Part shown: positions 9,933 through 50,492 of the stretch, one piece after another | Layout: each line of letters opens with the position of its first letter | How positions within the stretch are numbered: position 1 is the stretch's first letter | Source of the DNA: Promethearchaeia archaeon | Lineage (GTDB): Archaea; Asgardarchaeota; Lokiarchaeia; Sigyniarchaeales; SOKP01 | DNA length: 64,000 bases | Assembly: GCA_046497275.1 (NCBI GenBank) | Contig: JAWOFX010000054.1 | Location: 3,880 to 67,879, forward strand | Direction of reading: 5' to 3' | The notes under the pieces: generated by a model | Told to the model about the DNA's origin: nothing | What the model saw: the letters and a program-made list of their open reading frames with translations, nothing else | Database searches by the model: none | Made by a program: the position numbers and the translations under genes

Positions 9933-10013
9933 TTTCATTTCAATTTTTTATTTTATCTTTAATTTCCATTTTTTAAAATAGATTTTTATAATATATCCAT
10001 ATTAGCATTTCAA

Positions 10014-10033: not shown

Positions 10034-10050
10034 ACTATTTCTTAGAAAAT

Positions 10051-33784: not shown

Positions 33785-35149
33785 ATGGATTGGACTGATG
33801 AAATAGAAAATCTGTTTCAGAAAATAATGAATTTAACTCCCGAAGATTTTCGTGCTTCAATAGCGCCAATGTGGCATGATGCTGCCGAAAAAACTGCAAG
33901 ATTAAGAAATTCGGGATTTGTAAGCGAAGATGATCTGTTAACTGCATTATTTGATATCACCCCGGAAGCATTCCAACCCGCAGTAGTGAAGGATTTAACT
34001 GAAATCGGTATAGATACTGATCGTTATATTAAGTTGTCTGAAATAAGAAAAACATATGCCAGAACATGGAATGAAATCAGTGGGGCATTTAAACCAGGAG
34101 TTTACCATTTTACAATGTACATTACAGATCGTTGTAATCAAAATTGTTTACATTGCGCAGCTTCCGTAACGGAAAATAGAGAAGAATTATCAATACAAAA
34201 ATGGATTCAAATTATAGAAAATATAGAACAAACTCTTAGAAAACGAGGTAGAAATGGCTGTTATATTTGGTTCGGTGGAGAACCAACTGTACGGAAGGAC
34301 TTGAAAGATTTAATCGAATATTGTGGAGAAAAGGGATATTATCAAGCAGTTGCAACGAATGGAATCCTATTTGATGAGAAATTAGCAAAATTATGTGCTA
34401 AAGTTAAAATGAGTCATGTCTTTATCAGTTTAGACAGTACAAAACCCGAACGGGCTGCAAAAATAAGAGGTCACCCTAAAGCTTATGAATCTGCTATTAA
34501 AGCGATAAAATTAGCTAATGAATATGGATTGTTTACTATTGGAAATGCCACAATTCAAAAAGAAAATTTTGATGAATTAGAAGAGATACAAAATTTATAT
34601 GATTCTTTAGGAGTTATTCCATATTTTAGAGCAGTTATTAAGAAAAGGAGTGCAGATAAAAATTGGGAAGAGATCGGACTTGATTATGATCAATTTCGAG
34701 AGTTTTACAATTTTAAATATAACAATGTCGTTGATGCGATTCGAAGTGGAAAAGCATCGAGTATAAACAAATTTTATACTTGGGATATGGTCCCTTTTAT
34801 GGAAATTCCTAAAAATGATGAAGAAAGAGCCTCTCTAGAATGGGGAGTTGGTTGTCAAGCATGCAGATCGATTTCAGGAATTGATATCAATGGCGATGTT
34901 TTTCCATGTGATTATCCGTCTGAATTAATCTTAGGCAATGTTCTTGAACAGAGCTTTGATGAAATTATGGAATCTGAGATTTTTAAAGCCATTCGAGACA
35001 GGAAAATTAAAGGTAAGTGTGCTGATTGCCATCATCTGGAATTATGTGGTGGTGGTTGCAGAATTCATGCGGAAAATGAAACTGGTGACTTTCTCGCTGC
35101 TAGCCCTTATTGTTGGCATATAATGGATCATAAACACAATGAAGAGTGA
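33785..35149 (+). CDS. Radical SAM/SPASM enzyme with N-terminal PCP_red-like helical module
   Basis: aa 1-84 are the shared module (MDWTDEIENLFQKIMNLTPEDFR...). Then ITDRCNQNCLHCA (CxxxCxxC) and GGEPT. C-terminal SPASM Cys set CQAC...NGDVFPC...GKCADCHHLELCGGGC...C. GAGGT RBS. Confidence 0.8.
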   Translation: MDWTDEIENLFQKIMNLTPEDFRASIAPMWHDAAEKTARLRNSGFVSEDDLLTALFDITPEAFQPAVVKDLTEIGIDTDRYIKLSEIRKTYARTWNEISGAFKPGVYHFTMYITDRCNQNCLHCAASVTENREELSIQKWIQIIENIEQTLRKRGRNGCYIWFGGEPTVRKDLKDLIEYCGEKGYYQAVATNGILFDEKLAKLCAKVKMSHVFISLDSTKPERAAKIRGHPKAYESAIKAIKLANEYGLFTIGNATIQKENFDELEEIQNLYDSLGVIPYFRAVIKKRSADKNWEEIGLDYDQFREFYNFKYNNVVDAIRSGKASSINKFYTWDMVPFMEIPKNDEERASLEWGVGCQACRSISGIDINGDVFPCDYPSELILGNVLEQSFDEIMESEIFKAIRDRKIKGKCADCHHLELCGGGCRIHAENETGDFLAASPYCWHIMDHKHNEE

Positions 35150-35160
35150 TGTGAAAAATT

Positions 35161-36585
35161 ATGGAATGGGATGAAAATACAAAAAAAATATTTCAGCAGA
35201 TTGTCAAACAAATACCAGGTGGTTTTAGATCCGCTGTTGAACCACAAATAGTGAAAGCAGCAACACAGAGATGTTTAGATAGAAATGAATCGTATATTAA
35301 TGAATCAGATGTTGTTTTAGGAATTTTTGATATTATTCCTGAAGCATTTAAAGCAATGATGGTTGAAGATCTGACCGCTTTAGGAATAGATGTCCAAAGA
35401 TATATAGAATTGAAGGAAATTAAAGATCGCCTTAAGCTTTCTTGGGATAAATTAGAAAAAGCATTTCATCCTGGGGTTATACATTTTGCAATGTACATAA
35501 CAGATAAATGTAATATGAAATGTATTCACTGTGCTGCAGATGATTATATACCCAGAAAAGAATTACCTAAAGAAAGATGGTTTGAGATTATTGAAAATTT
35601 GGAATCTGGTTTAAGAAATCATGGTCGAAGAGGTTGCTACATTTGGTTTGGAGGAGAACCTACTTTACGCAAAGATATAGGGGAGATCATGGAATTTTGT
35701 AATAAAAATGATTATTTTCATGCTATTATCACTAATGGAGTAGAATTCAATGAAGATTTTGCTAAAAAGTGTAAAGATAATAATATGAGCCATGTTTTTG
35801 TAAGTTTTGACAGTGCTGATCCTGAAAAAAATGATTATATACGTGGTTTTAATAATTCTCTTCCATATGCTAAAAGAGCAATAAAAAATTGTTTAAAATA
35901 TGGACTTTTTGTCTGTTCATCGATTACTGTGATGAAGCAAAATATAAATGAACTTGATGATCTTGATTCCTTATCTTTAAAATGGGGAGCACAACCATTT
36001 TTTAGACCAGTAGTTAAACAAAATCGGGCTGCAGAATATTGGGATGAAATCGGACTTAACAAAGAAGAATATCATAAACTATACAATTATAAATATGAGA
36101 GAGCCATCAAAAAAATAAGAAATGCAGAGGCAGGCAGTCTTCCGGCTTACGAAATTTACGAGATGATGCCTTTTATGGAATGTCCGAAAAATGACAAGGA
36201 ATTAAGTGCAATTGAATGGGGTGTGGGTTGCTTAGCATGCAGAACGATGATGGGGGTAGGTATCGATGGCACTATTTTTCCTGCTGGATATCCAACTAAA
36301 TTAACTCTTGGAAATGCTTTGAAGGATGATTTTGACGACGTTTTAGATTCACAACTTTATAAAGATATAAGAGATAGAAAAAAGATCAAGGGAAAATGTG
36401 CAAAGTGCCATCATTTAGATTTATGTGGAGGAGGTTGCCGAGTCACTGCTGAATATATCACAGGCGACTTTTTTGCTTCTTTTCCTTTCTGCTGGCATGA
36501 AAATGATCATGAACATAAGAATTGCTTGAATCATAAGCAAAGAGTTGAAACAGAAAATATTCTATTAAAAAAACCTATTGAATAG
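35161..36585 (+). CDS. Radical SAM/SPASM enzyme with N-terminal PCP_red-like module (tandem paralogue of 33785..35149)
   Basis: Collinear with the upstream gene. ITDKCNMKCIHCA. SPASM region CLAC...DGTIFPA...GKCAKCHHLDLCGGGC, where the GxxxxC cysteine is Ala (codon 36283-36285). Confidence 0.8.
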   Translation: MEWDENTKKIFQQIVKQIPGGFRSAVEPQIVKAATQRCLDRNESYINESDVVLGIFDIIPEAFKAMMVEDLTALGIDVQRYIELKEIKDRLKLSWDKLEKAFHPGVIHFAMYITDKCNMKCIHCAADDYIPRKELPKERWFEIIENLESGLRNHGRRGCYIWFGGEPTLRKDIGEIMEFCNKNDYFHAIITNGVEFNEDFAKKCKDNNMSHVFVSFDSADPEKNDYIRGFNNSLPYAKRAIKNCLKYGLFVCSSITVMKQNINELDDLDSLSLKWGAQPFFRPVVKQNRAAEYWDEIGLNKEEYHKLYNYKYERAIKKIRNAEAGSLPAYEIYEMMPFMECPKNDKELSAIEWGVGCLACRTMMGVGIDGTIFPAGYPTKLTLGNALKDDFDDVLDSQLYKDIRDRKKIKGKCAKCHHLDLCGGGCRVTAEYITGDFFASFPFCWHENDHEHKNCLNHKQRVETENILLKKPIE

Positions 36586-36615
36586 TCTCATAAAATTTTA
36601 AAAAAGGGATAAAAA

Positions 36616-38031
36616 ATGCGAGTTTTATTGATTTCAGTAAGTAGAGAAATAGTCCATGTAATGACACCACCATTAGGTGAGTCTTATATTGCTTCCTATC
36701 TAATAAATAAGGGTCATCAAGTTAAAATATTAGACTTAACCCATAGTAATGATTCAGAGAATGATATCTCAAAAGCGATAAACAATTTTAACCCACAACT
36801 AATAGGAGTTTCTATTCGAAATATTGATTCAACAACATATCCTGGTAATTTGTTTTTTTACTTACCAGCAAGAAAAATTATTAAATATATTAAACATATC
36901 GCAGAACCAGATGTGCCGATAATACTAGGAGGAGCAGGATTTTCTATTTTTTCAGAAGAAATCCTAAAGGATTTAAATCATTCCCTTGGAGTAATTGGTG
37001 ATGGGGAACAAGTTTTTGCTGAAATCTGCAAAAGGGTAGAGAAACAAGAGGATTTAAGAAAAATAGAAAAAGGAATTTGCTATTTAGATAAAAATGGAGA
37101 ATATCATCAAAAAGCCCCTTGGCGAGTAAACAATCTCGATAAATTACCAATTCCGGCAAGACATTTAATCGATAATCAAGCATATTTAATCGATCCTTTA
37201 GATGTGAATGGAGAAATATGGGGTAATATTCAAACTAAGCGTGGTTGTCCAAAGAATTGTATTTATTGTAGTTATAAATATATAGAAGGTTCTAATGTGC
37301 GATATAGAAGTCCAAAAAGTGTTGCCGAAGAAATAGAAGTCCTAGTTAATAATTATGGAGTAAAAAACATATTTTTCGTGGACAGTGTGTTTAATTTAAG
37401 CTATGATCACCTAAAAAATACTTGCCAAAAAATAATAAAAAAAAATCTTGATTTAAATTGGGGCGCAAATTATGTACCTGATAAAAAATTTATCAATCTA
37501 TTACCTCTTATGAAAGAGAGTGGTGCAATTCATCTAGCAACTGGTATAGAATCATTATCAGGAGAAATGCTCAAGAGTATGAAAAAAGGAAGGAAAAGTG
37601 AAGATGCTATAATCACATCTAAAAGATGTTTTGAACTTGAAATAGAGCAATTAATCCATATAATAATAGGGGGTCCGAATGAAACACTTAAGACTGTTCG
37701 TGCTTCTTTAGATTTATTAGAAACAATTAAGAATTATCAAAATAAAATTTGGCAAGGTGATGGAGATGTTTTATTATTTATAGGAATTAGGATATACCCA
37801 CATACAGAAATCCAGGTTATAGCTGAAGAGGAAGGAATAATAGTTGAAGATGAGAATTTACTACGGCCGAAGTTCTATATATCTCCAAAAATTAAAGAAA
37901 TTGAACTTTTTCAAGTCGTTAGGAAATATTGTGCTAGAAATCCCAGATGGATGGCTCCAGGATTAGGAATAAACAATCCAGATGGTTTTGCAGAATTAAG
38001 TAATATGCAGTTTGCAAAATATCAAACTTGA
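36616..38031 (+). CDS. B12-binding-domain radical SAM protein
   Basis: MRVLLIS...LIGVSIRN...IILGGAGFS N-terminal domain, then QTKRGCPKNCIYCSY. Confidence 0.75.
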   Translation: MRVLLISVSREIVHVMTPPLGESYIASYLINKGHQVKILDLTHSNDSENDISKAINNFNPQLIGVSIRNIDSTTYPGNLFFYLPARKIIKYIKHIAEPDVPIILGGAGFSIFSEEILKDLNHSLGVIGDGEQVFAEICKRVEKQEDLRKIEKGICYLDKNGEYHQKAPWRVNNLDKLPIPARHLIDNQAYLIDPLDVNGEIWGNIQTKRGCPKNCIYCSYKYIEGSNVRYRSPKSVAEEIEVLVNNYGVKNIFFVDSVFNLSYDHLKNTCQKIIKKNLDLNWGANYVPDKKFINLLPLMKESGAIHLATGIESLSGEMLKSMKKGRKSEDAIITSKRCFELEIEQLIHIIIGGPNETLKTVRASLDLLETIKNYQNKIWQGDGDVLLFIGIRIYPHTEIQVIAEEEGIIVEDENLLRPKFYISPKIKEIELFQVVRKYCARNPRWMAPGLGINNPDGFAELSNMQFAKYQT

Positions 38032-38077
38032 ATCTTTTTAAATTAGAATTATATAATAATAAAAAAAAATTAGAAAA

Positions 38078-39250
38078 ATGAATTGGGAACAAAAAATTAA
38101 AGAACTTTATAATAAAGTTGTAGAAAGAATACCAGAATCTGTCCGACCAATTATAAAGCCAGCATTAGCTGAAGCTGCTAAAGAAAAATGTACTGAACGT
38201 AATGGAACAGAGATATCTGAGGTCGATTTAGTTGTCGCCTTATTTGAAGTCACTCCTCCGGCATTTCAACCGACGATGATTGAAGATCTAAAAAAGCTTG
38301 GTGTAGATTATGATAGGTATTTAGCAAAAGTGAAAGGAGATTTTAAATGTAATAATGATCTGGAGATTATGGTTGAGGATACTCTAAAATTATGCAAAAT
38401 AGCTGGAATTAATGGAAATAAACCAGCTATTTGGAAGGTTATAAATGTTTATGAACCCTTTTTTAGAGGTTCTTCCATCTCTATAAGAACAACTACGAAA
38501 CCAATCGAAAAGAGAGATGTATCGGTAAGATATGTAGAACTTATGCATCCACACAAACCAGATGCGTATTCGACTGCTATTAATGAAGGACTTATTGAAA
38601 ATAATGGCCATATCATTCATGACGCTATTAAAGAGGTAATAAATAAATTTCAGATTATGGGATATGGAATCGATCTAGATGCAAGAAAAGGATTATCAAA
38701 AATATGGCCTTTTGTGGTACCAGGTTCTTTGGATCCAATATTTGACTTGGAAAATTATCCTGAAAGTGTAAAAAACTACAAAGCATATTTTGATAAACAT
38801 AAATTAAACATTTTTAGTCTTTTTGCTTTTGATTTCTGTCATTACACTACAAATATTTATATCATGCTTAAAAATCCTTCAGCTAATTCATTAGATGTAT
38901 CTAAAAAATTAGTAAGTGATTTAGGATTTAGTTTACCTTCGGATAAGGTTATGGAAAGTTGCGCTAAAGCAGCACATTTGAATTATACATTTAATTGGGA
39001 TGATGAAAAAGTACAAAGGCTTTGTTTTGGAGTTACATGTCAAAAATCTCAAGAAGTCCCTACAGATCTTCATCCTCTCATCAATAAATTTATCGAAAAA
39101 TCTCCATTTCAAAGCGAAATTCATAAATTTATATATGGAGTGACCTTTACTCCGGATGATATTTATTATAAAATCGAAAATGATTACAACGGTACGATGG
39201 TTGATTTTTTGTTGATGGGAGCTCAAGCAGGGATTAATTCATACAAATGA
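38078..39250 (+). CDS. ABBA-type aromatic prenyltransferase (NphB/CloQ/Orf2-like) fused to N-terminal PCP_red-like module
   Basis: aa 1-84 are the shared module. The remainder aligns, from my memory of NphB, in its C-terminal half: YTFNWDDEKVQRLCFGV vs TLNWETGKIDRLCFAV, and FIYGVTFTPDDIYYKIENDY vs LVYGLTLSPKEEYYKLGAYY. Confidence 0.6.
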   Translation: MNWEQKIKELYNKVVERIPESVRPIIKPALAEAAKEKCTERNGTEISEVDLVVALFEVTPPAFQPTMIEDLKKLGVDYDRYLAKVKGDFKCNNDLEIMVEDTLKLCKIAGINGNKPAIWKVINVYEPFFRGSSISIRTTTKPIEKRDVSVRYVELMHPHKPDAYSTAINEGLIENNGHIIHDAIKEVINKFQIMGYGIDLDARKGLSKIWPFVVPGSLDPIFDLENYPESVKNYKAYFDKHKLNIFSLFAFDFCHYTTNIYIMLKNPSANSLDVSKKLVSDLGFSLPSDKVMESCAKAAHLNYTFNWDDEKVQRLCFGVTCQKSQEVPTDLHPLINKFIEKSPFQSEIHKFIYGVTFTPDDIYYKIENDYNGTMVDFLLMGAQAGINSYK

Positions 39251-39285
39251 GAATTTTATATTACATTTAAATAAGAGGTGATTAA

Positions 39286-40431
39286 ATGAAATTTATTATT
39301 GAAGGAAATTATGATATAGGTTTATTGGATAAAATAAAAGAAGAAGATTTACCCATAAGTCATATAATTTTACATGTTCCGAAAAATCCAATAGGAAATA
39401 GTTCAATTTTCTTACCAAAAGACCAACCGTCTTTTAAAGAATTTGAAAACTATACAAATGCTGTTCAAGAATCTGGGTTTATTCCTATCGCAGGATTAGA
39501 TTCGACTTGTCAAGGTAATTTAGAAGCTCATATGCAACATTATGAGGCAACGAAAAATTTATTGAATTCTTTAGAAAATTTAAATTATAGAAATATTCTA
39601 GTTTCTGCTCCCAACAATGTTGGTTTCATTAAAGAAAATTATAGTGAAGTAAATATTTTTCTTTCATATTCACAATATGTGACATCTACCAATAGAGCTA
39701 AGATTTTTTTTGATATTGGAGTTGATTCTATTATTCTACACCCAGATATAAACAGATCCTTTGGAGCTTTAAGGAATTTCATTAAAATGAAAGAGAAAAA
39801 AACCAATTCATATGAATTTGTAATTCCTCTAAATATCGGGTGTAATTGGGGATGTATTTACTGGTATCAGCACCATAATCTACAAAGTCATAGAACAATC
39901 AATTCTCCCATATCAAATGAACAAATAAATATATCGGACATAGAAAATAGCTTTGATTATCCCATATTAAATTGTTGGAAGAATCGTCTCAAAAGTCCTC
40001 AAAATATATTGAAATCAGGTTGGATTAGCCCATATAATTTCTCCGAATATATTAATCTGGGATATGAAACATTTTATCTTTCGTCATATAAAATGTCAAA
40101 TGATTGTATAATTAATACACTGAAATCCTATCTAGAAGCAAATATCGATGATAACTTCTTAGAATTAATAAGCATACCTTATCCTTATGGAGAGTATTGG
40201 AATGATGAATATAAACTATCTTCTTTTTTTAAATTTGATTCGGACTTAATAAAAGAATTCTGTAAAAAAATACCATATGAAGAACATTATCCAAAAGAAA
40301 ATAAGATGATAAGTTATTGTAATGAATTTAGTAAAAGGATAAAGATAAAAGATCAAGAGCTTAGAGAAAAGGTTTTAGATATAATAAATCATAAGCTAAA
40401 TGAAATTGAAAAAGGATCTATTAAGAGGTAA
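39286..40431 (+). CDS. Divergent U32-like TIM-barrel protein (paralogue of 40437 and 49092)
   Basis: GAGGTGA RBS. Same layout as its neighbours (KFIIEGNYDIGLLDKI vs KLTVATNWDYNLIDEL; ...VSAPNNVGFIKENY...IILHPDINRSF...IPLNIGCNWGCIYWYQHH), but only two Cys in the cluster region. Confidence 0.45.
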   Translation: MKFIIEGNYDIGLLDKIKEEDLPISHIILHVPKNPIGNSSIFLPKDQPSFKEFENYTNAVQESGFIPIAGLDSTCQGNLEAHMQHYEATKNLLNSLENLNYRNILVSAPNNVGFIKENYSEVNIFLSYSQYVTSTNRAKIFFDIGVDSIILHPDINRSFGALRNFIKMKEKKTNSYEFVIPLNIGCNWGCIYWYQHHNLQSHRTINSPISNEQINISDIENSFDYPILNCWKNRLKSPQNILKSGWISPYNFSEYINLGYETFYLSSYKMSNDCIINTLKSYLEANIDDNFLELISIPYPYGEYWNDEYKLSSFFKFDSDLIKEFCKKIPYEEHYPKENKMISYCNEFSKRIKIKDQELREKVLDIINHKLNEIEKGSIKR

Positions 40432-40436
40432 AAAAA

Positions 40437-42479
40437 ATGAGAATATCTTTAGCATGTAATTGGCGGATGGATTTACTACATAAACTGGAAAACGAGCCCG
40501 AATCGCTTAAAAATCTTTATGATTTTTATGGAACTTTCGACTTGAGTTTTACAGGTACAGGAAGACCTTTCTTTCTAATGGCAAAGAGAAATAAAGAAGA
40601 AATTGAGGAATTTATAAATAAAGTCCATGATTTAGGATTAAAATTCACTTGGTTATGGAATGGAATGTGTCTAGGATATCATATGTTCAATCAAGAAGAG
40701 CAAACAAAAGCTCTTAAGGAGCTAGATTGGTTAAGCGATCTTGATGTTGAATATCTTACTGTAGCAGATCCTTATTTGGCGAAATTTGCTAAAAAATATA
40801 GTCCAAATTTAAAATTGAAAGTATCCGTTATTTCAGAGGTAAATTCTCTCTCTAGAGCATTAGAATGGGAAAAAATAATTGGAAAAGAAGGAGTTATAAC
40901 GTTATCAATAATGTTAAACCGTAATTTTCCCCTTCTTAAAGAAATAAGAGAAAAGGTTGATTGTGATATAGAACTTCTCACAAATGATTGTTGTTTAAAT
41001 GAATGTCCGTTCAGATTTTTTCACTATTCCGAATGTTCCCATGCAAGTCAGTCGTATGATAAACTAGAAGGTTATTATAATGATTGGGCTACAATTGCAT
41101 GTCAGAATCAGAAAGTCTTCAAACCTAGACAAATTATCATGGCAAAATGGATCCAACCAAAAGACTTAGATAAATATATAAACATCAATATAGATTATTT
41201 TAAGATTTCTGGAAGGAGGTATGGAACAGCTTGGTTATATAGAGCTTTAAAATCCTATAGTAATAAATCTCATAAAGGAAACCTTGGTGAGATATTTAAT
41301 GGATATTCTTTCGTATCTGATCCCTTAGAATTAGCAGGAAATCAGTTTTCAGAATTTTCACTTAAACAAGAAAAAATGGGAGTGGACGCAGATAATCAAA
41401 GTATCATGCTGAGTATACCCGATTTCAATGCTCAATTGAAAGCAGAGGCACTATCAGACTTGATTGAGAAAATGCCTTTCAAAGGGGAAAAATGTGCTGA
41501 AAATTGTGGAGTAACATGTTTTTATTGCGACACATTTATAGATCGCGCATACTTTATCCCCTCTGGGAAATCCAATGATTCATATCGGAATTATATGAAA
41601 TTCCTCTATGATTATCTAAATAAAGGAGAAATGTTTGTACCCAAAGAAAAAAGAACACTAAAACCACCAACAAAGGAAACTGAATCCGACACGTATTTTG
41701 GGTTTAAATGGACTCCAGAAGCGGAAAAATTTCTTGAAGAGACGATGTTAATTGTACCAGAAAGTATGCAACTGGCTGCAAAAAAAGGGATCGGAATGAC
41801 GGCTGAGAGAACAGCAGAAAAAAAAAATCTAGATTATGTTGATAAAGATCTTATAATTTCTATAACGTTCCAATTAGTTCCTCAACCATTCAAACATGAT
41901 TTTTATGATTTTTGTCTGGAAAAAGGAATAGTTCCTCAGAAATATTTAAATGAGGATGAAATAAAATCAATCAAGTCTTTACCTTATGCTACAGACATTA
42001 TAAAAAAAACAGCTGAAGAACGAGGTAGACTTGTTGGAAGAAAACAACTTGAAAAAAAATCAAAAAAAAAACCAAAAGTGATACCAAATATGAATACAAA
42101 AAAAGAATGGGAAGCGTATTTAACTCGCTTCATGAAAGCATATAATGAGTTACCGGATGTAGAATCAATGTTAGAACCTGTAGCACCTCTTGTATTTCAA
42201 TATAAAATATCTGACAGACCAGAGATGAATTATTGGCAAAAGATTGAGAAAAATGAGATGAAGTGGGGAATGGGAGAATATGAAGGAGAGCAAACCCCAA
42301 CTGTGATCCATAAAACGAATTTTGACACAATAAAAAAAGTTAATTCTGGTGAAACAAATCCTATTGAAGCAACTATGGCTGGTACTTATGTCATTGAAGG
42401 AGATGCTACAAAACTTATGGCTTGTGCACCTCTTTTACCATTGAATGCTAAAGCTCATGAAAAAGCTATCAAAATGTGA
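40437..42479 (+). CDS. Multidomain protein: U32-like Fe-S TIM barrel, Cys4 motif, PCP_red-like module, Lys-rich linker, SCP2-like lipid-binding domain
   Basis: U32-like layout (ISLACNW..., LTVADPYLAKFAKKYSPNLKLKVSVISEVNS, IELLTNDCCLNECPFRFFHYSEC). CAENCGVTCFYC motif. Shared module at 41709-41948 (WTPEAEKFLEETMLIVPE...). C-terminal LVFQYKISDRPEMNYWQKIEKNE...TVIHKTNFDTIKKVNSGETNPIEATMAGTYVIEGDATKLM fits the SCP2 pattern (F.FKv.d....W.vd.k......d.ti....df..l..Gk.np..A...Gk..i.Gd). Confidence 0.6.
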   Translation: MRISLACNWRMDLLHKLENEPESLKNLYDFYGTFDLSFTGTGRPFFLMAKRNKEEIEEFINKVHDLGLKFTWLWNGMCLGYHMFNQEEQTKALKELDWLSDLDVEYLTVADPYLAKFAKKYSPNLKLKVSVISEVNSLSRALEWEKIIGKEGVITLSIMLNRNFPLLKEIREKVDCDIELLTNDCCLNECPFRFFHYSECSHASQSYDKLEGYYNDWATIACQNQKVFKPRQIIMAKWIQPKDLDKYININIDYFKISGRRYGTAWLYRALKSYSNKSHKGNLGEIFNGYSFVSDPLELAGNQFSEFSLKQEKMGVDADNQSIMLSIPDFNAQLKAEALSDLIEKMPFKGEKCAENCGVTCFYCDTFIDRAYFIPSGKSNDSYRNYMKFLYDYLNKGEMFVPKEKRTLKPPTKETESDTYFGFKWTPEAEKFLEETMLIVPESMQLAAKKGIGMTAERTAEKKNLDYVDKDLIISITFQLVPQPFKHDFYDFCLEKGIVPQKYLNEDEIKSIKSLPYATDIIKKTAEERGRLVGRKQLEKKSKKKPKVIPNMNTKKEWEAYLTRFMKAYNELPDVESMLEPVAPLVFQYKISDRPEMNYWQKIEKNEMKWGMGEYEGEQTPTVIHKTNFDTIKKVNSGETNPIEATMAGTYVIEGDATKLMACAPLLPLNAKAHEKAIKM

Positions 42480-42557
42480 ATTTATAAAAAATTAAAGAAA
42501 TTTACTTTCTTTTTTTTATATCAGTATTTAATTATTTATTTTTTTTCATATTTTTTA

Positions 42558-44024
42558 CGGTGGTCGGTTAGCCGACATTATTTGTGAATTATCCCACCAC
42601 CCCCATGGATTTTTGCTCCACTCTAAGAAACAACCCTCTAAGGACATCTTGGTTCTGGTTAAGATTCCAGCTGCGAGAGCTCATTTTTCGAGTTCGCTCA
42701 AGTTGAATGCGCTTCCTATTCATTTTCCAAGAGTTATAAAGGAGTATTCGTGCAAGCATATCGAGATATCTTACGTTATCGTGGTTAGATCGCCATCGCC
42801 GATTAATCCGATTTAAGTCGGAAAATCCAGTTTCGATAAGCCATCGACGGCGATAAAAGAGGGATGTGCGGGATGCCCACGAGCTTTCCTTCCCTTTTGG
42901 TTTCTCGGTTGTCATTATCGTAAAAACCCTATGATATGCATCCTTCAAGGAGAGAATCCCTCTCCGAACATCTCTTTTAATACCTCGGAGAGAGAAGCCT
43001 TGTTTTGCCCGTATTATGAGGTTAACATCGCATTTAAATTGTCGCTTTGCTGCGGTAGCAGTAGAAAATGTATACCTTCGCACTCGTCCCGCTTTTCCCT
43101 CCAAGTATTCCTTAATAAATTGTTTAATTTTTTTATATTGTTTCGCAGGCATGAGTACATTGCCGCCTTTTTGTTTTATATCGTCTATCAATTCAGCTCT
43201 ATAAAACTCACGATCCATTAACACATATTTTAATTCAAATCCCAATTCGAGAAGATGAGCCAAAAAGGTTTTGATTATTGGAATCTTAGATTGTCCATTT
43301 GCCACATGCTCCAATCCTGCATAGAGATGAACATTCCGGGAAAGTAATGAAAAACCGAGATAATGACGCATCTTTTTGGTTCCCTTTTGTCGATTAGTAC
43401 CCTTAATCATTTTATCCTCACGAGACCCGAAATATGGATGTTCTGTAAAATCAATTAATACGTTCACCTTTTTTGAGATGAGTTTTGACTTGTATGCTTC
43501 TTTTAATTGTTCATCAAGACATTCACGTAAAAGTTTGCGCGCTTTCTTGATGCCAATTCCGCGTAAATACTTGTTCACTTCGGTTTGGTGTGGAACATAT
43601 CTCTTTTTACGCCCGTCTGAAAAGATTTTCCGTCTTCCCTTTTTATGACTCAGTATGTACGCATTAAGCTGCTCGCTGGTGTCGTGTATGGATCTACCTA
43701 TAATTTCTGAAAAGAAGAATACTCTTAAAAAGTCTGAATCCTCATATTTAGCGTTTTTTGCCCTTTTGACCCGCCATGTGCGAGAGATGACAACATCACA
43801 AAACTTTTTATAAAATGAGAGAATATTATCATTAGAAAGAAGTGATTTGATTCCTAACTTTTGAATAGAAGTAGGAAATATTTCTTGTAATCGCATACAT
43901 GAATATAATCACTTCTTTCTTTTTAATTTTACGGTTATCCATCAGAGGAATAAAATCCTAAAAAATAATGTTTCATAATACCAATTGAGAGGCAGTATTT
44001 CATAGGATGGGCCAGAGACCATCG
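42558..44024 (-). mobile_element. IS4-family-like insertion sequence (boundaries approximate)
   Basis: Visibly higher G+C than its flanks. Single DDE transposase gene. Candidate imperfect terminal inverted repeats cggtggtc (42558-42565) / gaccatcg (44017-44024). No target-site duplication identified. Confidence 0.55.
42589..43896 (-). CDS. DDE transposase, IS4 family-like
   Basis: 435 aa. LIDFTEHPYFG (D), YVLMDREFY (D), YRRRWLIETGFSDLNR (Y-x2-R-x3-E signature). Confidence 0.75.
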   Translation of the reverse strand: MRLQEIFPTSIQKLGIKSLLSNDNILSFYKKFCDVVISRTWRVKRAKNAKYEDSDFLRVFFFSEIIGRSIHDTSEQLNAYILSHKKGRRKIFSDGRKKRYVPHQTEVNKYLRGIGIKKARKLLRECLDEQLKEAYKSKLISKKVNVLIDFTEHPYFGSREDKMIKGTNRQKGTKKMRHYLGFSLLSRNVHLYAGLEHVANGQSKIPIIKTFLAHLLELGFELKYVLMDREFYRAELIDDIKQKGGNVLMPAKQYKKIKQFIKEYLEGKAGRVRRYTFSTATAAKRQFKCDVNLIIRAKQGFSLRGIKRDVRRGILSLKDAYHRVFTIMTTEKPKGKESSWASRTSLFYRRRWLIETGFSDLNRINRRWRSNHDNVRYLDMLARILLYNSWKMNRKRIQLERTRKMSSRSWNLNQNQDVLRGLFLRVEQKSMGVVG

Positions 44025-44185
44025 ACAATAATATGATCTACTTCCTTTGAGACTGTTTATATATTAAGAATGTGAATCAATAATCCGAAATTCAAATCAA
44101 AAGTAAATTATATTAAAATAATTTAAGTATATAACAATAGAAAAAGAAAAAATGATTAAATTAAAATTTATAGTGATCAGAAATA

Positions 44186-45445
44186 ATGATATCTAATGAA
44201 TTAGTGAAAAATAATAAAATTAGGAACATCATTAATACAGATTTTAAAGATACTCTCTTTATTCAACATATAAGAGAAGTTATAAACGATGCGAAAGTAA
44301 AAAATAAGATATATAGAAGATTAATTGAAAATAATAATTTTAATATTGATGATTTGAATAAAATTGAGGATCTTTCTACGATTCCTTATTTGAATGCTTT
44401 TGATTTCAAAGAATCAAATCAAATGTATAAAAAGTTTTTAAAAATTCCTTTCAATTCACCTGAATTTGATTCTTGGAATGTATCTTCTTGTACTTCTGGC
44501 AATCCTTCTTTGGTGGGCAGGTCTAAATATGATAATGAATTATTGGCAAGCATGACTATAAAATGCATTTATGATTTTATACCGATTCCTGAAAATGAGT
44601 GGTTCAATACACTTTCATTTAATTTTGCTCCTAACATCAAATTTTTAAATAGAATCGCTCTTAGATATACTAAAGAGAGACCGGTTAAGTTATATAGTAG
44701 TAATTTGCACAAAATATCCACTCGGATGTCGGATCCTTATTTTTTAGTTAAATTTAAACTGTTAAAAGCTATTAAAGAAATAATCGTTAACAGAAGTTTA
44801 GTTGGGGCATTTAATATCGATTCTAAATTTGTGATTAAAAAAATCAATAAGAATTTAAAAAAACCAGAAGATAAAAGAAAATATGTTTCATTTGGCGGCA
44901 GTCTCCAATTAGTAAATAATTTTATGAACGGATTTTTAGAAGTGAACGGTCTCAGATATAATTTAAAAGATAGTGTAGTTAATTTTGGGGGAGGCGGCTG
45001 GGATGGTCATAAAAGCCAATTAAAATATCCTCCTATAGAAAAAACTAAGTTTGTTAATGATTGTGAGAAATATCTTGGAACGCCCCCCGAAAATATCACA
45101 GATATGTACGGATTTACTGAAACACCTATAGTGTTTGGATCACATTGGTCTGAAAAACGCCAAGATTTCATAATGCATTGCCCACCTCAAGCTAGAATAA
45201 TTATAAGGGATATGAAAACAAAAGATCCTTTAACCAGTCTTGGAGACATTGGTTTTCTTGAAGTGATAACTCCGTTTGGAGTAAATGCATCGCTAAATCA
45301 TGCAATCCTAATTGATGATGTTGTTGAACTTATTTCGAAAAATAGGTGCCCCGAATGTGGATATGAAGGAGATACTTTTAGAGTATTAGGAAGATTAGAA
45401 AATCCTGAAGGGTTAGGATGTTCTTCAATAGTAGAATGGATATAA
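44186..45445 (+). CDS. LuxE-like acyl-protein synthetase / adenylate-forming enzyme
   Basis: SSCTSGNPS (degenerate SSGTTG), NFGGGGWDG (GGGWK-like), MYGFTETP, C-terminal FRVLGRLENPEGLGCS (GR....e.RGCS-like). Paralogue of 52579..53880. Confidence 0.55.
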   Translation: MISNELVKNNKIRNIINTDFKDTLFIQHIREVINDAKVKNKIYRRLIENNNFNIDDLNKIEDLSTIPYLNAFDFKESNQMYKKFLKIPFNSPEFDSWNVSSCTSGNPSLVGRSKYDNELLASMTIKCIYDFIPIPENEWFNTLSFNFAPNIKFLNRIALRYTKERPVKLYSSNLHKISTRMSDPYFLVKFKLLKAIKEIIVNRSLVGAFNIDSKFVIKKINKNLKKPEDKRKYVSFGGSLQLVNNFMNGFLEVNGLRYNLKDSVVNFGGGGWDGHKSQLKYPPIEKTKFVNDCEKYLGTPPENITDMYGFTETPIVFGSHWSEKRQDFIMHCPPQARIIIRDMKTKDPLTSLGDIGFLEVITPFGVNASLNHAILIDDVVELISKNRCPECGYEGDTFRVLGRLENPEGLGCSSIVEWI

Positions 45446-45588
45446 GGAAGTTAATTTTTTTCAAAATAATCTTTTTATTAGATTATTATTTAGTAATACT
45501 AATTTTTAAAGATTCAAATCAAAAATCTTTCCATTCAAATTATTTTATCCAATAGATTTCAAATGATATTAATATTATAAAAAAAAAA

Positions 45589-45906
45589 TTAAGGGCTCCA
45601 ATATCTAATAAACCGCACTAAACCTATAGACATTAGAATTACAGTAAAAATAACTGCAACGGAACATAAAACTAGTCCCACAATTGCAAAAACTTTTTTA
45701 TCATCCCCAGTTATAGCTACTATTCCCATTATATCGCCAAGAACAGCTATTATAAGAACTATGATACCAATGGTGACCGAAAAGATTATTACCATCGGCT
45801 CTCCATAAACTACAGCAGGAATATAAGAAAGAATTCCAATAGTCCATAATATGGCATTTGCAATAATCCCTAATATCATTGAAGCGATACCAAAACCATT
45901 TTCCAT
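45589..45906 (-). CDS. Small membrane protein (3-4 TM)
   Basis: 105 aa, Ile/Gly/Val-rich TM helices. The only minus-strand gene inside the cluster apart from the IS. Confidence 0.45.
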   Translation of the reverse strand: MENGFGIASMILGIIANAILWTIGILSYIPAVVYGEPMVIIFSVTIGIIVLIIAVLGDIMGIVAITGDDKKVFAIVGLVLCSVAVIFTVILMSIGLVRFIRYWSP

Positions 45907-46133
45907 CCATTTTCGCCTTTTTTAATATTCTAACAAAATATTAAAACTCTAAATTATTTTGAATTTTTAAATTTTTTCCTTGCTAAAATCATTTTTTCAT
46001 GATCAATTAATAAAAAAAGTAAAAAAGACTTAAATTAAAAAAAATCTTTTTCTTGCATTTCATTTTATATTTAAGGAATTTATTCTTTTAAAATTGTATA
46101 AAATATATAGATTGTAAAAAAATTGAGTCTTTA

Positions 46134-47276
46134 ATGATAAAAATATCATTTAAACCGAAAAACCAAAAGAATAATGTAATTCCAATTTTGGAATATTATG
46201 GTTATGTTATAGCCAAATTAGTTGATTCATTTTCTCTGTTTTCGACTTTTATTGATAAATTGGAAACATTATATATAAGAAAAACAATTGGTACTATAGA
46301 GATTAATAGCCCAATCTTTATAACTGGAATTCCAAGATCTGGCACAACTATCACTCTTGAAATGTTAGCCAAACATCCTGAAGTAGCTTCTCATAAATAT
46401 AAGCATCTTCTCATGCCTTATATTCCATATTGGTTTAGTAACGCAATAAATAAATTGAAAATTTCTTTAGAACCAACTGAAAGAATACATCAAGATAGAA
46501 TATTCATTAATCAAGATAGTCCGGAAGCTGTAGAAGAGATTTTTTGGCAAAGATTCTTTGAAAATGTTCATAATGAAAGTGATTCAAATATTTTAGACAA
46601 TAATACTAAGAATGAAGAATTCGAAAATTTTTATAAGAATCATATTAAAAAGTTGCTAATAAGTCAAGAATCTTCAAGATATATCGCAAAAAATAATTAT
46701 AATTTAACAAGATTGGAATATTTAATCAAAATTTTTCCAGATGTTAAATTTGTAATACTAATACGTAATCCTATAAATCAAATTGCTTCAATTATTAAAC
46801 AACAAAAATCATTCATTAAAATGGAATCAATCTCACCTCTATTATCAGAGTGGAATAATATTCTTGGCCATCATGAATTTGGAAATCATTCTAGTTTAAT
46901 TAATTTGAATGACTATGAATTAGTTAAAAAAATTAGAAGTTTATTAAAGAATAAAAATTCATATGTAAAAGGATGGGGTTATTATTGGACTTCTCTTTAT
47001 GATCATGTCATGAAAATTATAAAAATTAATAAAAAAGTCAAAAAAGCTAGTTTAATTGTACGATATGAAGATTTATGCGAATCCTCATCATCAACAATCG
47101 ATAAAATCCTTGATCACACCAACCTACCACATGAGCAGTTTGATCATACGAAAAAGTATTATGTTAGATGTCTAGAGAAACCTTCTTATTATAAACCACA
47201 TTTTTCGGATATAGAAATTGAAAATATATTAAAAATCACAAGACCAACAGCGAAAAAATATGGATATCAATTATAA
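46134..47276 (+). CDS. Sulfotransferase family protein (PAPS-dependent type)
   Basis: 5'-PSB-like loop ITGIPRSGTTITLEML and 3'-PB-like RNPINQIAS. Confidence 0.65.
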   Translation: MIKISFKPKNQKNNVIPILEYYGYVIAKLVDSFSLFSTFIDKLETLYIRKTIGTIEINSPIFITGIPRSGTTITLEMLAKHPEVASHKYKHLLMPYIPYWFSNAINKLKISLEPTERIHQDRIFINQDSPEAVEEIFWQRFFENVHNESDSNILDNNTKNEEFENFYKNHIKKLLISQESSRYIAKNNYNLTRLEYLIKIFPDVKFVILIRNPINQIASIIKQQKSFIKMESISPLLSEWNNILGHHEFGNHSSLINLNDYELVKKIRSLLKNKNSYVKGWGYYWTSLYDHVMKIIKINKKVKKASLIVRYEDLCESSSSTIDKILDHTNLPHEQFDHTKKYYVRCLEKPSYYKPHFSDIEIENILKITRPTAKKYGYQL

Positions 47277-47457
47277 TATTCTCTTCGATTTTAATTTCTA
47301 TAATGGCTTATTCCAAGTCTTAAATTATTAGAAATAGTATCAATTCGTATAAAAAGCTATAGCATTTTAATAATTCTCCCAAATTAAAGAGCTTAAAATT
47401 TTTATGTATGTAATAATATTTTAAAATATTTAGTTAATAATCTAAAGGAAACTGAAT

Positions 47458-48921
47458 TTGAAAAAATATAATATACTATTTATCCACCCCCCAATCAATT
47501 CCAGCTCGATTCAAGATGAAAGTCCTCATAAAAGACGCGGAAATTATATATTTATTCCCATGGGCGTTTTTGCTATCGCTGACCTATTGGAAAGAGAGGG
47601 TTTTAGTGTCAAAATAATAAATTTTCCTTTAGAGAAATTCCTTAATTCTAAATGGAATTTAAAAGATTTTTTAAAAAACCTTGATTTCGATATTTGCGCA
47701 ATTGATCTACATTGGATCCACAATTCTTACGGTGCTTTATATATTTCTAAGGTAGTTAAAGAAATTGATAAAAATATCAAAGTAATTTTTGGAGGTTATA
47801 GTGCTTCATATTTCCATAAACAGATTTTGAAATATTATCAAACAGTAGATGGAATTATTAGAGGAGATGGTGAAATTCCATTTTTAGAATATACTAGATG
47901 CCATCTAAGAAACAAAAATTTTGATAAAGTTCCAAATTTGACTTATAGAAATTCATCAGGCATGATAAAAGTTAATCCAATTTCCTATATTGCAAAATCT
48001 TTAGAAGATTTAAATTTTTCTAATATATCTTTAATGCACAATGCGGAGTCATATTTAAATAATAGCAGAAAAATTATGGGAATATCTTATAATGTTTCTG
48101 TTGGAAGAGGTTGTCCATTTAATTGTCCGTTTTGTGCAGGAGGAAAAAAGGCTCAAGAAAAATATTCTTGTCGAACAGAGGTAATTCTAAGGAATCCACG
48201 AAGAGTTGTTGAAGATATTTTATTTATTTATCATAATTATAATATTGATAATTTCTTTTTTGGACATGGAACTTATCCAAAAACCCTTAAGTACTGGGAG
48301 AAATTGTTTTCTATTATCAGAGAAGAAAATATCGATATTTCTGCTGATTTAGAAATTTGGAGATTACCATTTCCTAAAAAAATGGTTCAGAGTTTTTATG
48401 AGACATTCAATAATAAAAAATCTTCGTTAAGTATCTCCCCAAGAACAATCTCTTCTTCTGTCCAGAAGAAAATTGCGAAATTAGATGATCCAACATTTAT
48501 TTTCAGAAAAAGTGAAATTTTCAAGCTTATTGAAGACACAATTCAATACCGAATCCCATTAAGAATATGGTTGACAATTGGATTTCCTTTTCAAAATAGA
48601 AGAGAAATTATAAAAGATATTATGTTTGCTATAGAATGTGTATTAAAGTATGGAAAATCGAAAAAAAATCCTATAGCAATTATGAGTGAACCGTACTTTA
48701 TATTCCCAGGCTCCCCCGTATTTGAGGATCCTGAAAAATATGGAATTAAATTAAAATTAACTAATTTTCCTGAAATTGTAAATGCATTTAAGAATTCTAA
48801 AATTTCATTTTTTTATAACTTGACAAATTATGATAATAAATATTTTTCAAGTAATTTTATAAGAAAATTGAATCTGCTATTTTTCTTAATTGTAGCACCA
48901 ATGTTCCTTACAAGTGGTTAA
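47458..48921 (+). CDS. B12-binding-domain radical SAM protein
   Basis: TTG start. N-terminal Rossmann-like domain (ICAIDLHW...VIFGGYSAS), then VSVGRGCPFNCPFCAG. Confidence 0.7.
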   Translation: MKKYNILFIHPPINSSSIQDESPHKRRGNYIFIPMGVFAIADLLEREGFSVKIINFPLEKFLNSKWNLKDFLKNLDFDICAIDLHWIHNSYGALYISKVVKEIDKNIKVIFGGYSASYFHKQILKYYQTVDGIIRGDGEIPFLEYTRCHLRNKNFDKVPNLTYRNSSGMIKVNPISYIAKSLEDLNFSNISLMHNAESYLNNSRKIMGISYNVSVGRGCPFNCPFCAGGKKAQEKYSCRTEVILRNPRRVVEDILFIYHNYNIDNFFFGHGTYPKTLKYWEKLFSIIREENIDISADLEIWRLPFPKKMVQSFYETFNNKKSSLSISPRTISSSVQKKIAKLDDPTFIFRKSEIFKLIEDTIQYRIPLRIWLTIGFPFQNRREIIKDIMFAIECVLKYGKSKKNPIAIMSEPYFIFPGSPVFEDPEKYGIKLKLTNFPEIVNAFKNSKISFFYNLTNYDNKYFSSNFIRKLNLLFFLIVAPMFLTSG

Positions 48922-49091
48922 AAATAAGTTATTCTAGATTGATTTTTTTAATTTTATTCAAATTAATCAAAATCAAAATATCTTCCAAGAAGTTTAAATT
49001 TATTCTAAAATTTTAAATTAAAATCTATTTTTAGATTATTAAAAGATTTTTTGATCTTAATTACATTTAAATATATCATAAATGAATTTCA

Positions 49092-50492
49092 ATGAAACTA
49101 ACAGTAGCAACTAATTGGGATTACAATTTAATTGATGAATTAGTAAAATATCCAGTTTCAGATTTGTATGGAGTTGCACAAGAAAGCCCGGTTGGTGGAG
49201 GACGTCCTTCATTTCTATTAACATCAATCTCTAAAAAAAAAATAGAAAAATATATCAAAGAGGTTCATAATAAGGGTATGAAATTTTCATATCTTCTTAA
49301 TGCACCTTGCATGGGCAATATGGAATATAATAAAGAATATCATAAACTATTAATCAAATATATCCAATGGATAAGCGATATCGAGGTAGATAGTGTAATT
49401 GTTACCATTCCGTTTTTGATTCAAGTCATCAAAAAACAATTTCCAGAATTAAAAATACGCGTTTCTACAATTGCAACCGTTAATAGTATTAATCGAGCAA
49501 AATTTTATGAGATGCTTGGAGCCGATGAGATCACTCCTGATGTCATGATAAATCGAGATTTTAAAACATTAAAAAATATCCAAAAGGCAACTAATTGTAA
49601 AATCGTGTTATTACTAACTGATGGTTGTTTATACCAATGCCCTTTTAGATTATATCATTATAATCTTTTAGGTCACGCATCTCAAACAAATAACGAGATT
49701 GGGCAAAACTATATTGATACTTGCATTTTAAACTGTAGCATTATTAAATATTCTGATCCTGCAGAAGTTTTAAAAGCAAGGTGGATCCGTCCTGAAGATC
49801 TTTCTCATTATATGGAAATCGGAATAGATCATTTTAAAATCGCAGGAAGGCGTATGTCTACACCATGGATTCTTAGAGCAGTTAAAGCTTTCTCATCTCA
49901 AAAATATAATGGGAATCTAGTAGATATTATTCAAGGATTTTCAATGTCATTTGGTGGTTTAGAACAGAAAGATCCCAATTTAAGCTTGAGAAAAACCATA
50001 GGAGAAGAGTCTAAATCCAAATTATATATTGACAATACAAAATTAGATGGCTTTATAGATTTTTTTAAAAACCAAAATTGTATATCTATGTGTGATCAAT
50101 GCGATTATTGTGAAAAATGGGCAAATAAAGCAGTAAGATTAGATCCTGAAAAGTCTTCTAATTATTTAAAATCTCTTAAAGCATATCTTGATGATATCAT
50201 AACAAGCAGAGAATTTGGACTAAAAACTTCAGAAAGCAAAGAAGAAATAAAAAAGGGCATGAACTGGAATTCTAAAACAGAACAACTTTTCAATGAATTA
50301 ATCAATTTGACTCCATCCCAATTTAGGTCTATGGCAAAAGTAGCTATATCCTCGGTTGCTGAAGAGAATGCTAGAAAGAGAAAATCTAATGAAGTTATGA
50401 ATCAAGATATGATAAAAGCATTCATAGAGGGTACTCCAGGACCTTTTCAAGATGATATGAAGAAGGGACTTAAAAAATTTAATCTCATATAA
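49092..50492 (+). CDS. U32-like Fe-S TIM-barrel protein with Cys4 motif and C-terminal PCP_red-like module
   Basis: MKLTVATNWDYNLIDEL...GGGRPS...VIVTIPFLIQVIKKQFPELKIRVSTIATVNS...LLLTDGCLYQCPFRLYHYN. CISMCDQCDYC motif. Shared module at 50259-50489 (MNWNSKTEQLFNELINLTPSQFR...). Confidence 0.6.
   Translation: MKLTVATNWDYNLIDELVKYPVSDLYGVAQESPVGGGRPSFLLTSISKKKIEKYIKEVHNKGMKFSYLLNAPCMGNMEYNKEYHKLLIKYIQWISDIEVDSVIVTIPFLIQVIKKQFPELKIRVSTIATVNSINRAKFYEMLGADEITPDVMINRDFKTLKNIQKATNCKIVLLLTDGCLYQCPFRLYHYNLLGHASQTNNEIGQNYIDTCILNCSIIKYSDPAEVLKARWIRPEDLSHYMEIGIDHFKIAGRRMSTPWILRAVKAFSSQKYNGNLVDIIQGFSMSFGGLEQKDPNLSLRKTIGEESKSKLYIDNTKLDGFIDFFKNQNCISMCDQCDYCEKWANKAVRLDPEKSSNYLKSLKAYLDDIITSREFGLKTSESKEEIKKGMNWNSKTEQLFNELINLTPSQFRSMAKVAISSVAEENARKRKSNEVMNQDMIKAFIEGTPGPFQDDMKKGLKKFNLI

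Follow-up and report, generated by a model that had tools for sequence, protein, structure and literature searches.

A helical domain shared by five proteins of an Asgard gene cluster

The window analysed here is a 64,000-nucleotide stretch of DNA (contig JAWOFX010000054.1, positions 3,880 to 67,879) from a Promethearchaeia archaeon. With a G+C content of about 28%, it carries between 31.3 and 53.9 kb a run of plus-strand genes, among them genes for two radical SAM (rSAM)/SPASM enzymes, an ABBA aromatic prenyltransferase and proteins of the U32 type. An NCBI protein from a metagenome-assembled genome of the Asgard 'Promethearchaeati archaeon' matches the prenyltransferase at 100% identity. A helical domain of about 85 amino acids (aa), here called the module, occurs as five homologous copies in five proteins (M1 to M5, Table 1), at the positions given by an earlier note on this DNA. 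The five strings of that note were found verbatim in the open reading frames (ORFs), and the boundaries set by a hidden Markov model (HMM) agree with its coordinates within a few codons.

Table 1 Features of the window (positions within the 64,000-nucleotide stretch)
Feature	Position	Strand	Description
Hydrophobic low-complexity ORF (252 aa)	32972-33730	+	no Pfam match
rSAM/SPASM enzyme 1 (454 aa)	33785..35149	+	module, Radical_SAM (85 bits) and SPASM (45.7 bits), above Pfam gathering scores
Module M1	33785..34066	+	residues 1-94 (N-terminal) of rSAM/SPASM enzyme 1; HMM match 33785-34033
rSAM/SPASM enzyme 2 (474 aa)	35161..36585	+	module, Radical_SAM (84 bits) and SPASM (27.3 bits), above Pfam gathering scores
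Module M2	35161..35442	+	residues 1-94 (N-terminal) of rSAM/SPASM enzyme 2; HMM match 35161-35409
ABBA aromatic prenyltransferase (390 aa)	38078..39250	+	module and PTase_Orf2 barrel (E 1e-47, 163.4 bits vs cut-off 22)
Module M3	38078..38353	+	residues 1-92 (N-terminal) of the prenyltransferase; HMM match 38078-38326
U32-like protein without module (381 aa)	39286..40431	+	directly upstream of the U32-module-SCP2 gene; groups with U32 in BLAST, weak Pfam U32
U32-module-SCP2 fusion (680 aa)	40437..42479	+	Pfam U32 at residues 94-277, SCP2 at 573-667
Module M4	41706..41987	+	internal, about residues 424-517, between U32 Fe-S and SCP2 domains; HMM match 41706-41954
SCP2 lipid-binding domain	42072..42476	+	residues 546-680 of the 680-aa fusion, immediately after M4; Pfam
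DDE transposase gene	42589-43896	-	DDE_Tnp_1, E 7e-13; inside the cluster, between U32-module-SCP2 and LuxE-like genes
U32-module protein (466 aa)	49092..50492	+	Pfam U32 (E 1.4e-14) and DUF2621
Module M5	50259..50489	+	C-terminal residues 390-466 of the second U32 protein; HMM match 50259-50483
Hydrophobic low-complexity ORF (263 aa)	50713-51504	+	no Pfam match
Three consecutive paralogous genes (202, 211 and 205 aa)	54020-56315	-	each with N-terminal zinc ribbon followed by membrane region (DUF4190-like)
Hydantoinase/oxoprolinase A and B gene pair	17673-22057	+	G+C 0.36-0.37 vs about 0.28 in the surroundings

The five modules align without internal gaps, W3, P19, A34, P60 and F63 being invariant, and the identity of the other copies to M1 ranges from 24 to 37%; M5 lacks helix 5. 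In pairwise BLASTP comparisons, with E-values scaled to a database of 2e7 residues, M1, M2 and M3 matched one another with E ~1e-21, M5 matched M1 with E 3e-10 and M3 with E 2e-11, and M4 matched M1 with E 3.5e-6. When the window was translated in six frames and searched with an HMM built from the five modules, exactly these five copies were recovered, with E-values from 1e-32 to 1e-43; a sixth copy was not detected in this search, the next-best match having an E-value of 0.015. The sharing of the module is thus well past chance. The five segments are best explained as paralogous copies of one autonomous five-helix domain of about 85 residues. The earlier note had spoken of five different catalytic scaffolds; there are indeed five host proteins, but they belong to three catalytic families (rSAM/SPASM twice, ABBA prenyltransferase once and U32 twice).

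Predicted fold and conservation of the module

The isolated M2 segment was modelled by AlphaFold 2 with a predicted local distance difference test (pLDDT) score of 90.2 and a predicted template modelling (pTM) score of 0.78. The model consists of a short N-terminal (two-residue) bridge and helices at residues 5-16, 20-40, 48-58, 61-73 and 78-92. The same helices are present in the model of the full-length prenyltransferase (pLDDT 95.3, pTM 0.92), in which the module is helical at residues 5-86 and the pLDDT exceeds 90 across it. Among 64 prenyltransferase orthologues the mean frequency of the most common residue is 0.74 in the module and 0.72 in the barrel, and few parts of the protein are as well conserved as residues 51-70 (LVVALFEVTPPAFQPTMIED). 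The module is a folded, conserved domain under purifying selection and not a linker; the alternative of a generic linker or low-complexity region, also considered earlier, is excluded by the confident five-helix prediction and by conservation at the level of the barrel.

Structural comparison did not assign the module to the histone fold (best Foldseek E 0.15, template modelling (TM) score 0.43-0.53, root-mean-square deviation (RMSD) ~8 Å; HMM against 1F1E E 0.16). Residues ~26-61 of the module (e.g. 35236-35343), comprising helix 2, a short strand and helix 3, gave a non-significant match to the lid of Lon AAA+ (E 0.05), and the same part matched an archaeal histone-fold protein (E 0.16) and, in Foldseek, H2B/NF-Y histone folds (E ≥0.15, TM ~0.5). 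These matches may reflect a helix-strand-helix likeness or chance. All hits of the module profiles in PDB sequence searches (Lon lid, histone-fold protein, ChlH, 2KRU, 2L09) were sub-significant, and only the PCP_red domains among them were kept, as a weak link.

Relation to DUF2621 and PCP_red

All five modules align to profile positions 55-139 of Pfam DUF2621 (PF11084), and the first ~54 positions of that model have no counterpart in the window. The gathering cut-off of 27.7 bits was passed by M5 (32.9 bits, E 7.6e-8) and M2 (27.9 bits, E 2.6e-6), whereas M3 (23.6 bits, E 5.7e-5), M4 (17.4 bits, E 4.5e-3) and M1 (13.9 bits, E 0.056) stayed below it. Besides having three of five copies under the threshold, the window modules differ from the known DUF2621 members in that these are small proteins and not enzyme fusions.

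The earlier note had compared the first half of the module with PCP_red, the C-terminal domain of BchB/ChlB. A W..eAe......vP.f.R....(A/E) pattern is indeed shared over the first ~45 residues; the window module is, however, about twice as long (five helices), and its host enzymes are not nitrogenase-like as in protochlorophyllide reductase. In a direct search of PCP_red (PF08369) only M4 gave a match, with 13.2 bits (E 0.092) against a cut-off of 32.5 bits, so that membership was not reached by the window modules. The link holds at the level of the superfamily, through intermediate sequences. When family members were scanned singly, DUF2621 was matched by 87 of 112 (E ≤0.01) and PCP_red by 37 of 112 (best E 1.9e-11). 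A comparison by hhalign of the window modules with free-standing members (six with precomputed PCP_red matches, five of these also with DUF2621) gave a probability of 99.4% and E 9e-22 over 82 columns; the likeness to these proteins and to DUF2621 extends along all of the ~85 residues of the domain. The profile of the free-standing members in turn matched the solved PCP_red domain of Chlorobium BchB (2KRU) with E 0.016 and Asr4154 (2L09) with E 0.2; neither structure was among the top 50 Foldseek matches of the module model. By these profile comparisons the module belongs to the PCP_red/DUF2621 superfamily, with DUF2621 as the closer label.

A word-indexed homologue search with the module alignments returned only 11-12 short fragments. 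The family was instead surveyed exhaustively with HMMER in 1.84 billion representative proteins, which yielded only 235 relatives at E ≤1e-3, many of them free-standing proteins of 80-100 aa. Architectures were inspected for the 150 listed representatives of the 235, from which P0206, P0259 and P0271 (saposin, HEAT and TPR repeat proteins) were dropped as helical-repeat false positives. One free-standing bacterial member (L002/L003) adjoins a DUF2515 gene, a context that is uninformative. The domain family is covered by two Pfam entries without known function. A literature search on DUF2621 and PCP_red found nothing relevant, and no paper mentioning DUF2621 came up. The sole functional hint comes from protochlorophyllide reductase, in which the C-terminal helix of BchB covers the protochlorophyllide cavity (PMC4071322).

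Host enzymes of the module

For the two rSAM/SPASM enzymes no NCBIfam equivalog cut-off was reached. The best matches were AhbD/NirJ-like, with 118-149 bits against cut-offs of 500-650, which corresponds to generic SPASM similarity, and a tetrapyrrole link on this basis was rejected. A tetrapyrrole-like ligand, which the earlier note had left open, therefore finds no support, the gene context being of a lipid/prenyl type and the highest score reaching 149 bits where the lowest cut-off is 500.

The prenyltransferase barrel superposes on solved ABBA prenyltransferases (AmbP3, FamD1, AmbP1, EpzP, NphB/Orf2, CloQ) with Foldseek E-values of 1e-27 to 1e-17 and an RMSD of 2.1-3.4 Å, AmbP3 being matched with E 1.1e-27, a target-normalised TM score of 0.92 and an RMSD of 2.2 Å. 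The solved enzymes (280-316 residues) are aligned over ~290 columns that represent the barrel, and none of them covers the 90-residue module.

Eight conserved Cys residues are present in the 680-aa U32 protein (78, 186, 190, 222 and 353, 357, 361, 364) and likewise in the 466-aa protein, where the first four are 73, 179, 183 and 215. The second cluster (CX3CX3CX2C or CX3CX2CX2C) lies just before the module in both proteins (residues 353-364 and 330-340) and in their relatives, and may constitute an extra metal or Fe-S site. In the 381-aa U32-like protein, which is 54% identical to its Thorarchaeota orthologue, the first four Cys residues are kept and the second cluster is absent. This protein is possibly a partner subunit of the 680-aa U32-module-SCP2 protein.

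According to Pfam and NCBIfam the cluster also encodes three B12-binding rSAM (B12-rSAM) enzymes, two LuxE/PaaK-like adenylating enzymes, a sulfotransferase and a CDP-alcohol phosphatidyltransferase. For one of the B12-rSAM enzymes the nearest family is 'lipid biosynthesis B12-binding/radical SAM', although its 287 bits fall short of the cut-off of 360. The combination of an ABBA prenyltransferase, U32 with SCP2, a CDP-alcohol phosphatidyltransferase and LuxE-like neighbours points to a prenylated or lipidic substrate.

Occurrence of the module across Asgard and other genomes

Homologues of the prenyltransferase numbered 130. The 120 listed, with names from Loki-, Thor-, Odin-, Hermod- and Hodarchaeota, are nearly all 388-390 aa long and fully cover the query, and the module is therefore retained in them. 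A scan of one genome per species with the prenyltransferase alignment as query gave 34 loci, all from Asgard or unclassified uncultured archaea (including L037), except for one Thermoplasmata chromosome. For a census these loci were combined with the metagenomic contig L001 and the window (36 loci in total) and searched with the module HMM and with domain queries from the window.

The census recovered 140 module copies. The module-rSAM/SPASM architecture accounts for 58 and module-prenyltransferase for 35, followed by U32-module (26) and U32-module-SCP2 (15). Rarer forms are prenyltransferase-module (2), U32-module-module (1) and SCP2-module-prenyltransferase (1; a single stop-to-stop frame that may fuse two adjacent ORFs). 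Two copies stand alone. One of them results from a frameshift in the first module-rSAM/SPASM gene of L001 (ERZ27271183 k141_947411, 10001-11370), which leaves a 127-aa ORF with the module and an rSAM ORF of 328-355 aa; either the gene is a pseudogene or the assembly is wrong at this point. Counted by enzyme, every prenyltransferase (38/38) has the module. It is present in 58 rSAM/SPASM enzymes and missing from 7, five of which have a C-terminal SCP2 domain instead and two neither; and it is found in 41 of 58 U32 proteins, the remaining 17 being of the 381-aa type. Thus, among the rSAM/SPASM enzymes of the clusters the module largely alternates with SCP2. At least one SCP2 domain was found in every locus but two short ones, and 22 SCP2 ORFs are free-standing; homologues of the window domain occur free-standing or joined to rSAM/SPASM in related loci. 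The survey thus extends the sharing of the module to dozens of genomes.

Within each enzyme lineage, orthologous modules of Asgard are 57-86% identical. M1-orthologous modules in the Thorarchaeota and L001 loci, for example, show 69-72% identity, and M4 is 57% identical to its Thorarchaeota orthologue. On the prenyltransferase the module is N-terminal in Asgard and C-terminal in Thermoplasmata and in L037. The Thermoplasmata prenyltransferase module is 64% identical to the rSAM module of the same genome and at most 49% to any Asgard module, and a separate fusion event or gene conversion is therefore indicated.

The clusters vary in extent. The Thorarchaeota cluster (L005/L025, JBHLRJ010000002.1, 1199-20355) is larger, with six modules, four SCP2 domains and a third module-rSAM/SPASM gene, and ends with a pair made up of FAD_binding_4 and Fer4_8/CCG. 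The Thermoplasmata cluster (L004/L036, CP070629.1, 8951-14136) is minimal and comprises three rSAM/SPASM genes, one with the module and one with SCP2, and the prenyltransferase with its C-terminal module. Several Asgard genomes have two paralogous clusters (L006/L030, L012/L029, L028/L038, L011/L024). In the second set the prenyltransferases share only 48-52% identity with the one in the window, and the gene order is module-rSAM, module-prenyltransferase, U32-module-SCP2, module-rSAM.

Outside such clusters the module is fused to LuxC together with rSAM/SPASM, to a class I methyltransferase, to an HpaB-like C-terminal domain and to a PNPOx-like domain. Proteins of 308 aa from outside the window (P0203 / P0282-P0295), annotated as 'NADH-quinone oxidoreductase subunit E', have two modules in tandem and then a thioredoxin-like [2Fe-2S] ferredoxin domain; these NuoE-like proteins may link the module family to electron transfer. 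A bacterial protein of 1104 aa has the architecture module-SCP2-SCP2-module, and another protein has the order U32-module-2xSCP2. Literature searches combining Asgard with aromatic prenyltransferase, U32 or radical SAM found no paper describing the module or the cluster.

Other features of the window

The stretch with the transposase gene is richer in G+C (0.36 vs ~0.28), and the downstream gene order departs from that of the syntenic loci L001 and L005. The B12-rSAM gene that precedes rSAM/SPASM enzyme 1 in these two loci has its window orthologue at 47458-48921. ORFs similar in size and position to the hydrophobic one upstream of rSAM/SPASM enzyme 1 precede this gene in L001 (227 aa) and L005 (243 aa); BLAST detected no similarity among the two hydrophobic ORFs of the window and their syntenic counterparts.

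Comparison with SCP2-organised ubiquinone systems

A U32 enzyme with four conserved Cys residues and an SCP2 domain encoded alongside, with SCP2 present in nearly every related locus, is a feature of the UbiTUV type. In the O2-independent hydroxylation of ubiquinone biosynthesis, UbiT (SCP2) is an accessory of the U32 Fe-S heterodimer UbiU-UbiV, in which each subunit carries a 4Fe-4S cluster; a ubiT-ubiU fusion is known in Zymomonas, and UbiJ likewise has an SCP2 domain, which binds intermediates and around which a multi-enzyme complex is organised (PMC6747719). The window resembles this system in its adjacent U32 pair (381 aa and 680 aa) with conserved four-Cys motifs and a fused SCP2 domain. 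Furthermore, the ubiquinone pathway also prenylates an aromatic compound, as the window cluster with its ABBA enzyme may do. Nevertheless, the U32 proteins of the window are not UbiU/UbiV equivalogs in NCBIfam (quinone_UbiU 17.8 bits against a cut-off of 440), and their best match, TrhP, reached 33.7 bits against 534. The second four-Cys cluster sets the module-bearing U32 proteins apart from UbiU/UbiV, a PCP_red/DUF2621 module is absent from the Ubi systems, and prenylation is carried out there by the membrane enzyme UbiA but in the window by a soluble ABBA enzyme.

A possible role as adaptor

From the computed homology, predicted fold, conservation, fusion census and co-occurrence with SCP2 we infer binding and complex formation: tentatively, and with slightly less confidence than an even chance would carry, we propose that the module is a non-catalytic adaptor which couples soluble enzymes, as an assembly, to one hydrophobic intermediate on SCP2. 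The enzymes concerned would be two or three of the rSAM/SPASM type, the ABBA prenyltransferase and the U32 Fe-S enzymes, and the SCP2 lipid-binding domain would hold the intermediate that they have in common. The modules would dock on the SCP2 carrier or on each other, so that the enzymes could act as an assembly. Such an arrangement would be UbiT/U/V-like, on the model of the ubiquinone complexes that SCP2 proteins organise (UbiJ, or UbiT together with the U32 proteins UbiU and UbiV), and the adaptor role would echo the position of the BchB C-terminal region over the substrate pocket of protochlorophyllide reductase. A shared purpose in carrier recognition or docking, as suggested in the earlier note, fits the fusion census as far as architectures can tell, chiefly through the recurrent pairing with SCP2. 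Nearly every rSAM/SPASM enzyme has either the module or SCP2, and a carrier relationship is therefore indicated. The attachment is also selective, in that the prenyltransferases always and the B12-rSAM and LuxE-like enzymes never bear the module, and it persists although the position of the module within the protein varies.

Several observations weigh against this proposal. The module is absent from all 51 B12-rSAM enzymes and all 11 LuxE-like proteins of the 36 loci, so these enzymes of the same cluster function without it. Modules that coexist in one genome as paralogues share only 16-48% identity, so that a surface on which all of them could bind the same partner is not apparent; conservation of at least 90% across the family is confined to W3, P19 and P60, which are probably structural residues. 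The methyltransferase, HpaB-like, PNPOx-like and NuoE-like 2Fe-2S fusion partners have no SCP2 in the same protein. Finally, the pTM of 0.92 for the full-length prenyltransferase suggests a rigid packing of the module on its own barrel, which fits a lid acting in cis equally well.

According to this alternative, each module packs on its own enzyme, closes over the active site without docking, and binds a chemical feature that all intermediates of the pathway share, such as a polyprenyl tail or planar ring. A fixed interface between module and prenyltransferase barrel is implied by the high pTM and by pLDDT values that exceed 90 throughout the module, and each enzyme has its own conserved orthologous lineage of modules, as would be expected from co-adaptation with the catalytic domain. 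The relationship of the family to PCP_red and the BchB C-terminal helix over the substrate cavity (PMC4071322) point in the same direction. On the other hand, the N-terminal, C-terminal or internal placement of the module on the same families and its common free-standing form are hard to square with one lid geometry, and the module-or-SCP2 pattern of the rSAM/SPASM enzymes speaks for a carrier. In protochlorophyllide reductase itself the covering by the BchB tail reportedly acts across subunits. We regard a lid in cis as rather unlikely, although it is the chief rival of the adaptor. A recruitment of a common low-potential donor (ferredoxin or a NuoE-like 2Fe-2S protein) to the Fe-S enzymes appears improbable, although reducing equivalents are required by rSAM/SPASM and U32 alike, the NuoE-annotated thioredoxin-like [2Fe-2S] protein bears two modules, some fusion partners are of flavin type (PNPOx-like, HpaB-like) and the founding member BchB is part of an electron-transfer enzyme. 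The most consistent bearer of the module, the ABBA prenyltransferase, has no need for electrons, and a class I methyltransferase bears it too, whereas the B12-rSAM enzymes need reduction as well and never carry it; furthermore, the cluster in the window showed no gene for a ferredoxin.

The RiPP recognition element (RRE; RiPPs are ribosomally synthesized and post-translationally modified peptides) is likewise a small non-catalytic domain repeated on unrelated enzymes of one pathway, often at the N-terminus of rSAM/SPASM proteins, and the module could bind a precursor leader or a carrier protein as the RRE of SPASM peptide maturases does. Indeed, it fills the first ~100 residues of the rSAM/SPASM enzymes, and the PDB homologues of enzyme 1 align only from residue ~110 onward, solved enzymes such as SuiB and SkfB from chain residue ~110-130; in SuiB the N-terminal region before the aligned part holds the RRE. 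RiPP clusters can also include ABBA prenyltransferases and B12-rSAM methylases. The analogy drawn in the earlier note holds for the logic of a shared domain but not beyond it. The RRE is a PqqD-like winged helix-turn-helix with a three-stranded beta-sheet, whereas the module is predicted to be all-helical apart from the two-residue bridge, and none of the modules matched PqqD in Pfam at E ≤10. No intergenic ORF of the cluster of at least 20 aa had a tblastn match (E ≤0.01) in L001, L004 or L005, so that no conserved candidate for a precursor peptide was found there, and the SCP2, CDP-alcohol phosphatidyltransferase, LuxE-like and sulfotransferase genes represent lipid chemistry. Recognition of a peptide or carrier protein therefore has a slight chance at most. 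It is also very improbable that the module, multiplied by duplications inside a single operon, confers nothing but stability or solubility, and that its copies have no common function and its sharing no meaning for the mechanism. Such a view would agree with the few, probably structural, residues that are invariant across the family, with the lack of any member of known function and with the absence of DUF2621 from the papers found. The fusions are, however, kept across the sampled Asgard lineages with 57-86% identity per lineage and a conservation equal to that of the catalytic domain, the prenyltransferase module is N-terminal in Asgard and C-terminal in Thermoplasmata, and the B12-rSAM and LuxE-like enzymes of the same operon strictly lack it.

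Implications

The domain family itself is already catalogued as DUF2621 and PCP_red. New is that rSAM/SPASM, ABBA prenyltransferase and U32 enzymes of one pathway all bear it as an accessory, coupled to SCP2, a variant of the known logic by which a domain for recognition or docking is shared. Three unrelated enzyme families retain the module strictly, and the cluster of ~20 kb is conserved across Loki-, Thor-, Hermod-, Hod- and Odinarchaeota. If the adaptor proposal is true, it would provide a functional hypothesis for DUF2621 and free-standing PCP_red proteins, the module would mark those enzymes of the cluster that share one intermediate, and the complex and its product could be isolated by way of the module or SCP2. 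More doubtful is a further step, in which the module would be a lipid-carrier recognition element, the counterpart of the RRE in RiPP pathways, and the enzymes would form a soluble, O2-independent metabolon making a prenylated aromatic lipid or quinone across the sampled Asgard archaea. The product could be an Asgard-specific, O2-independent prenylated aromatic lipid or quinone, and such a compound would bear on the membrane and energy metabolism of Asgard archaea and hence on models of eukaryote origin.

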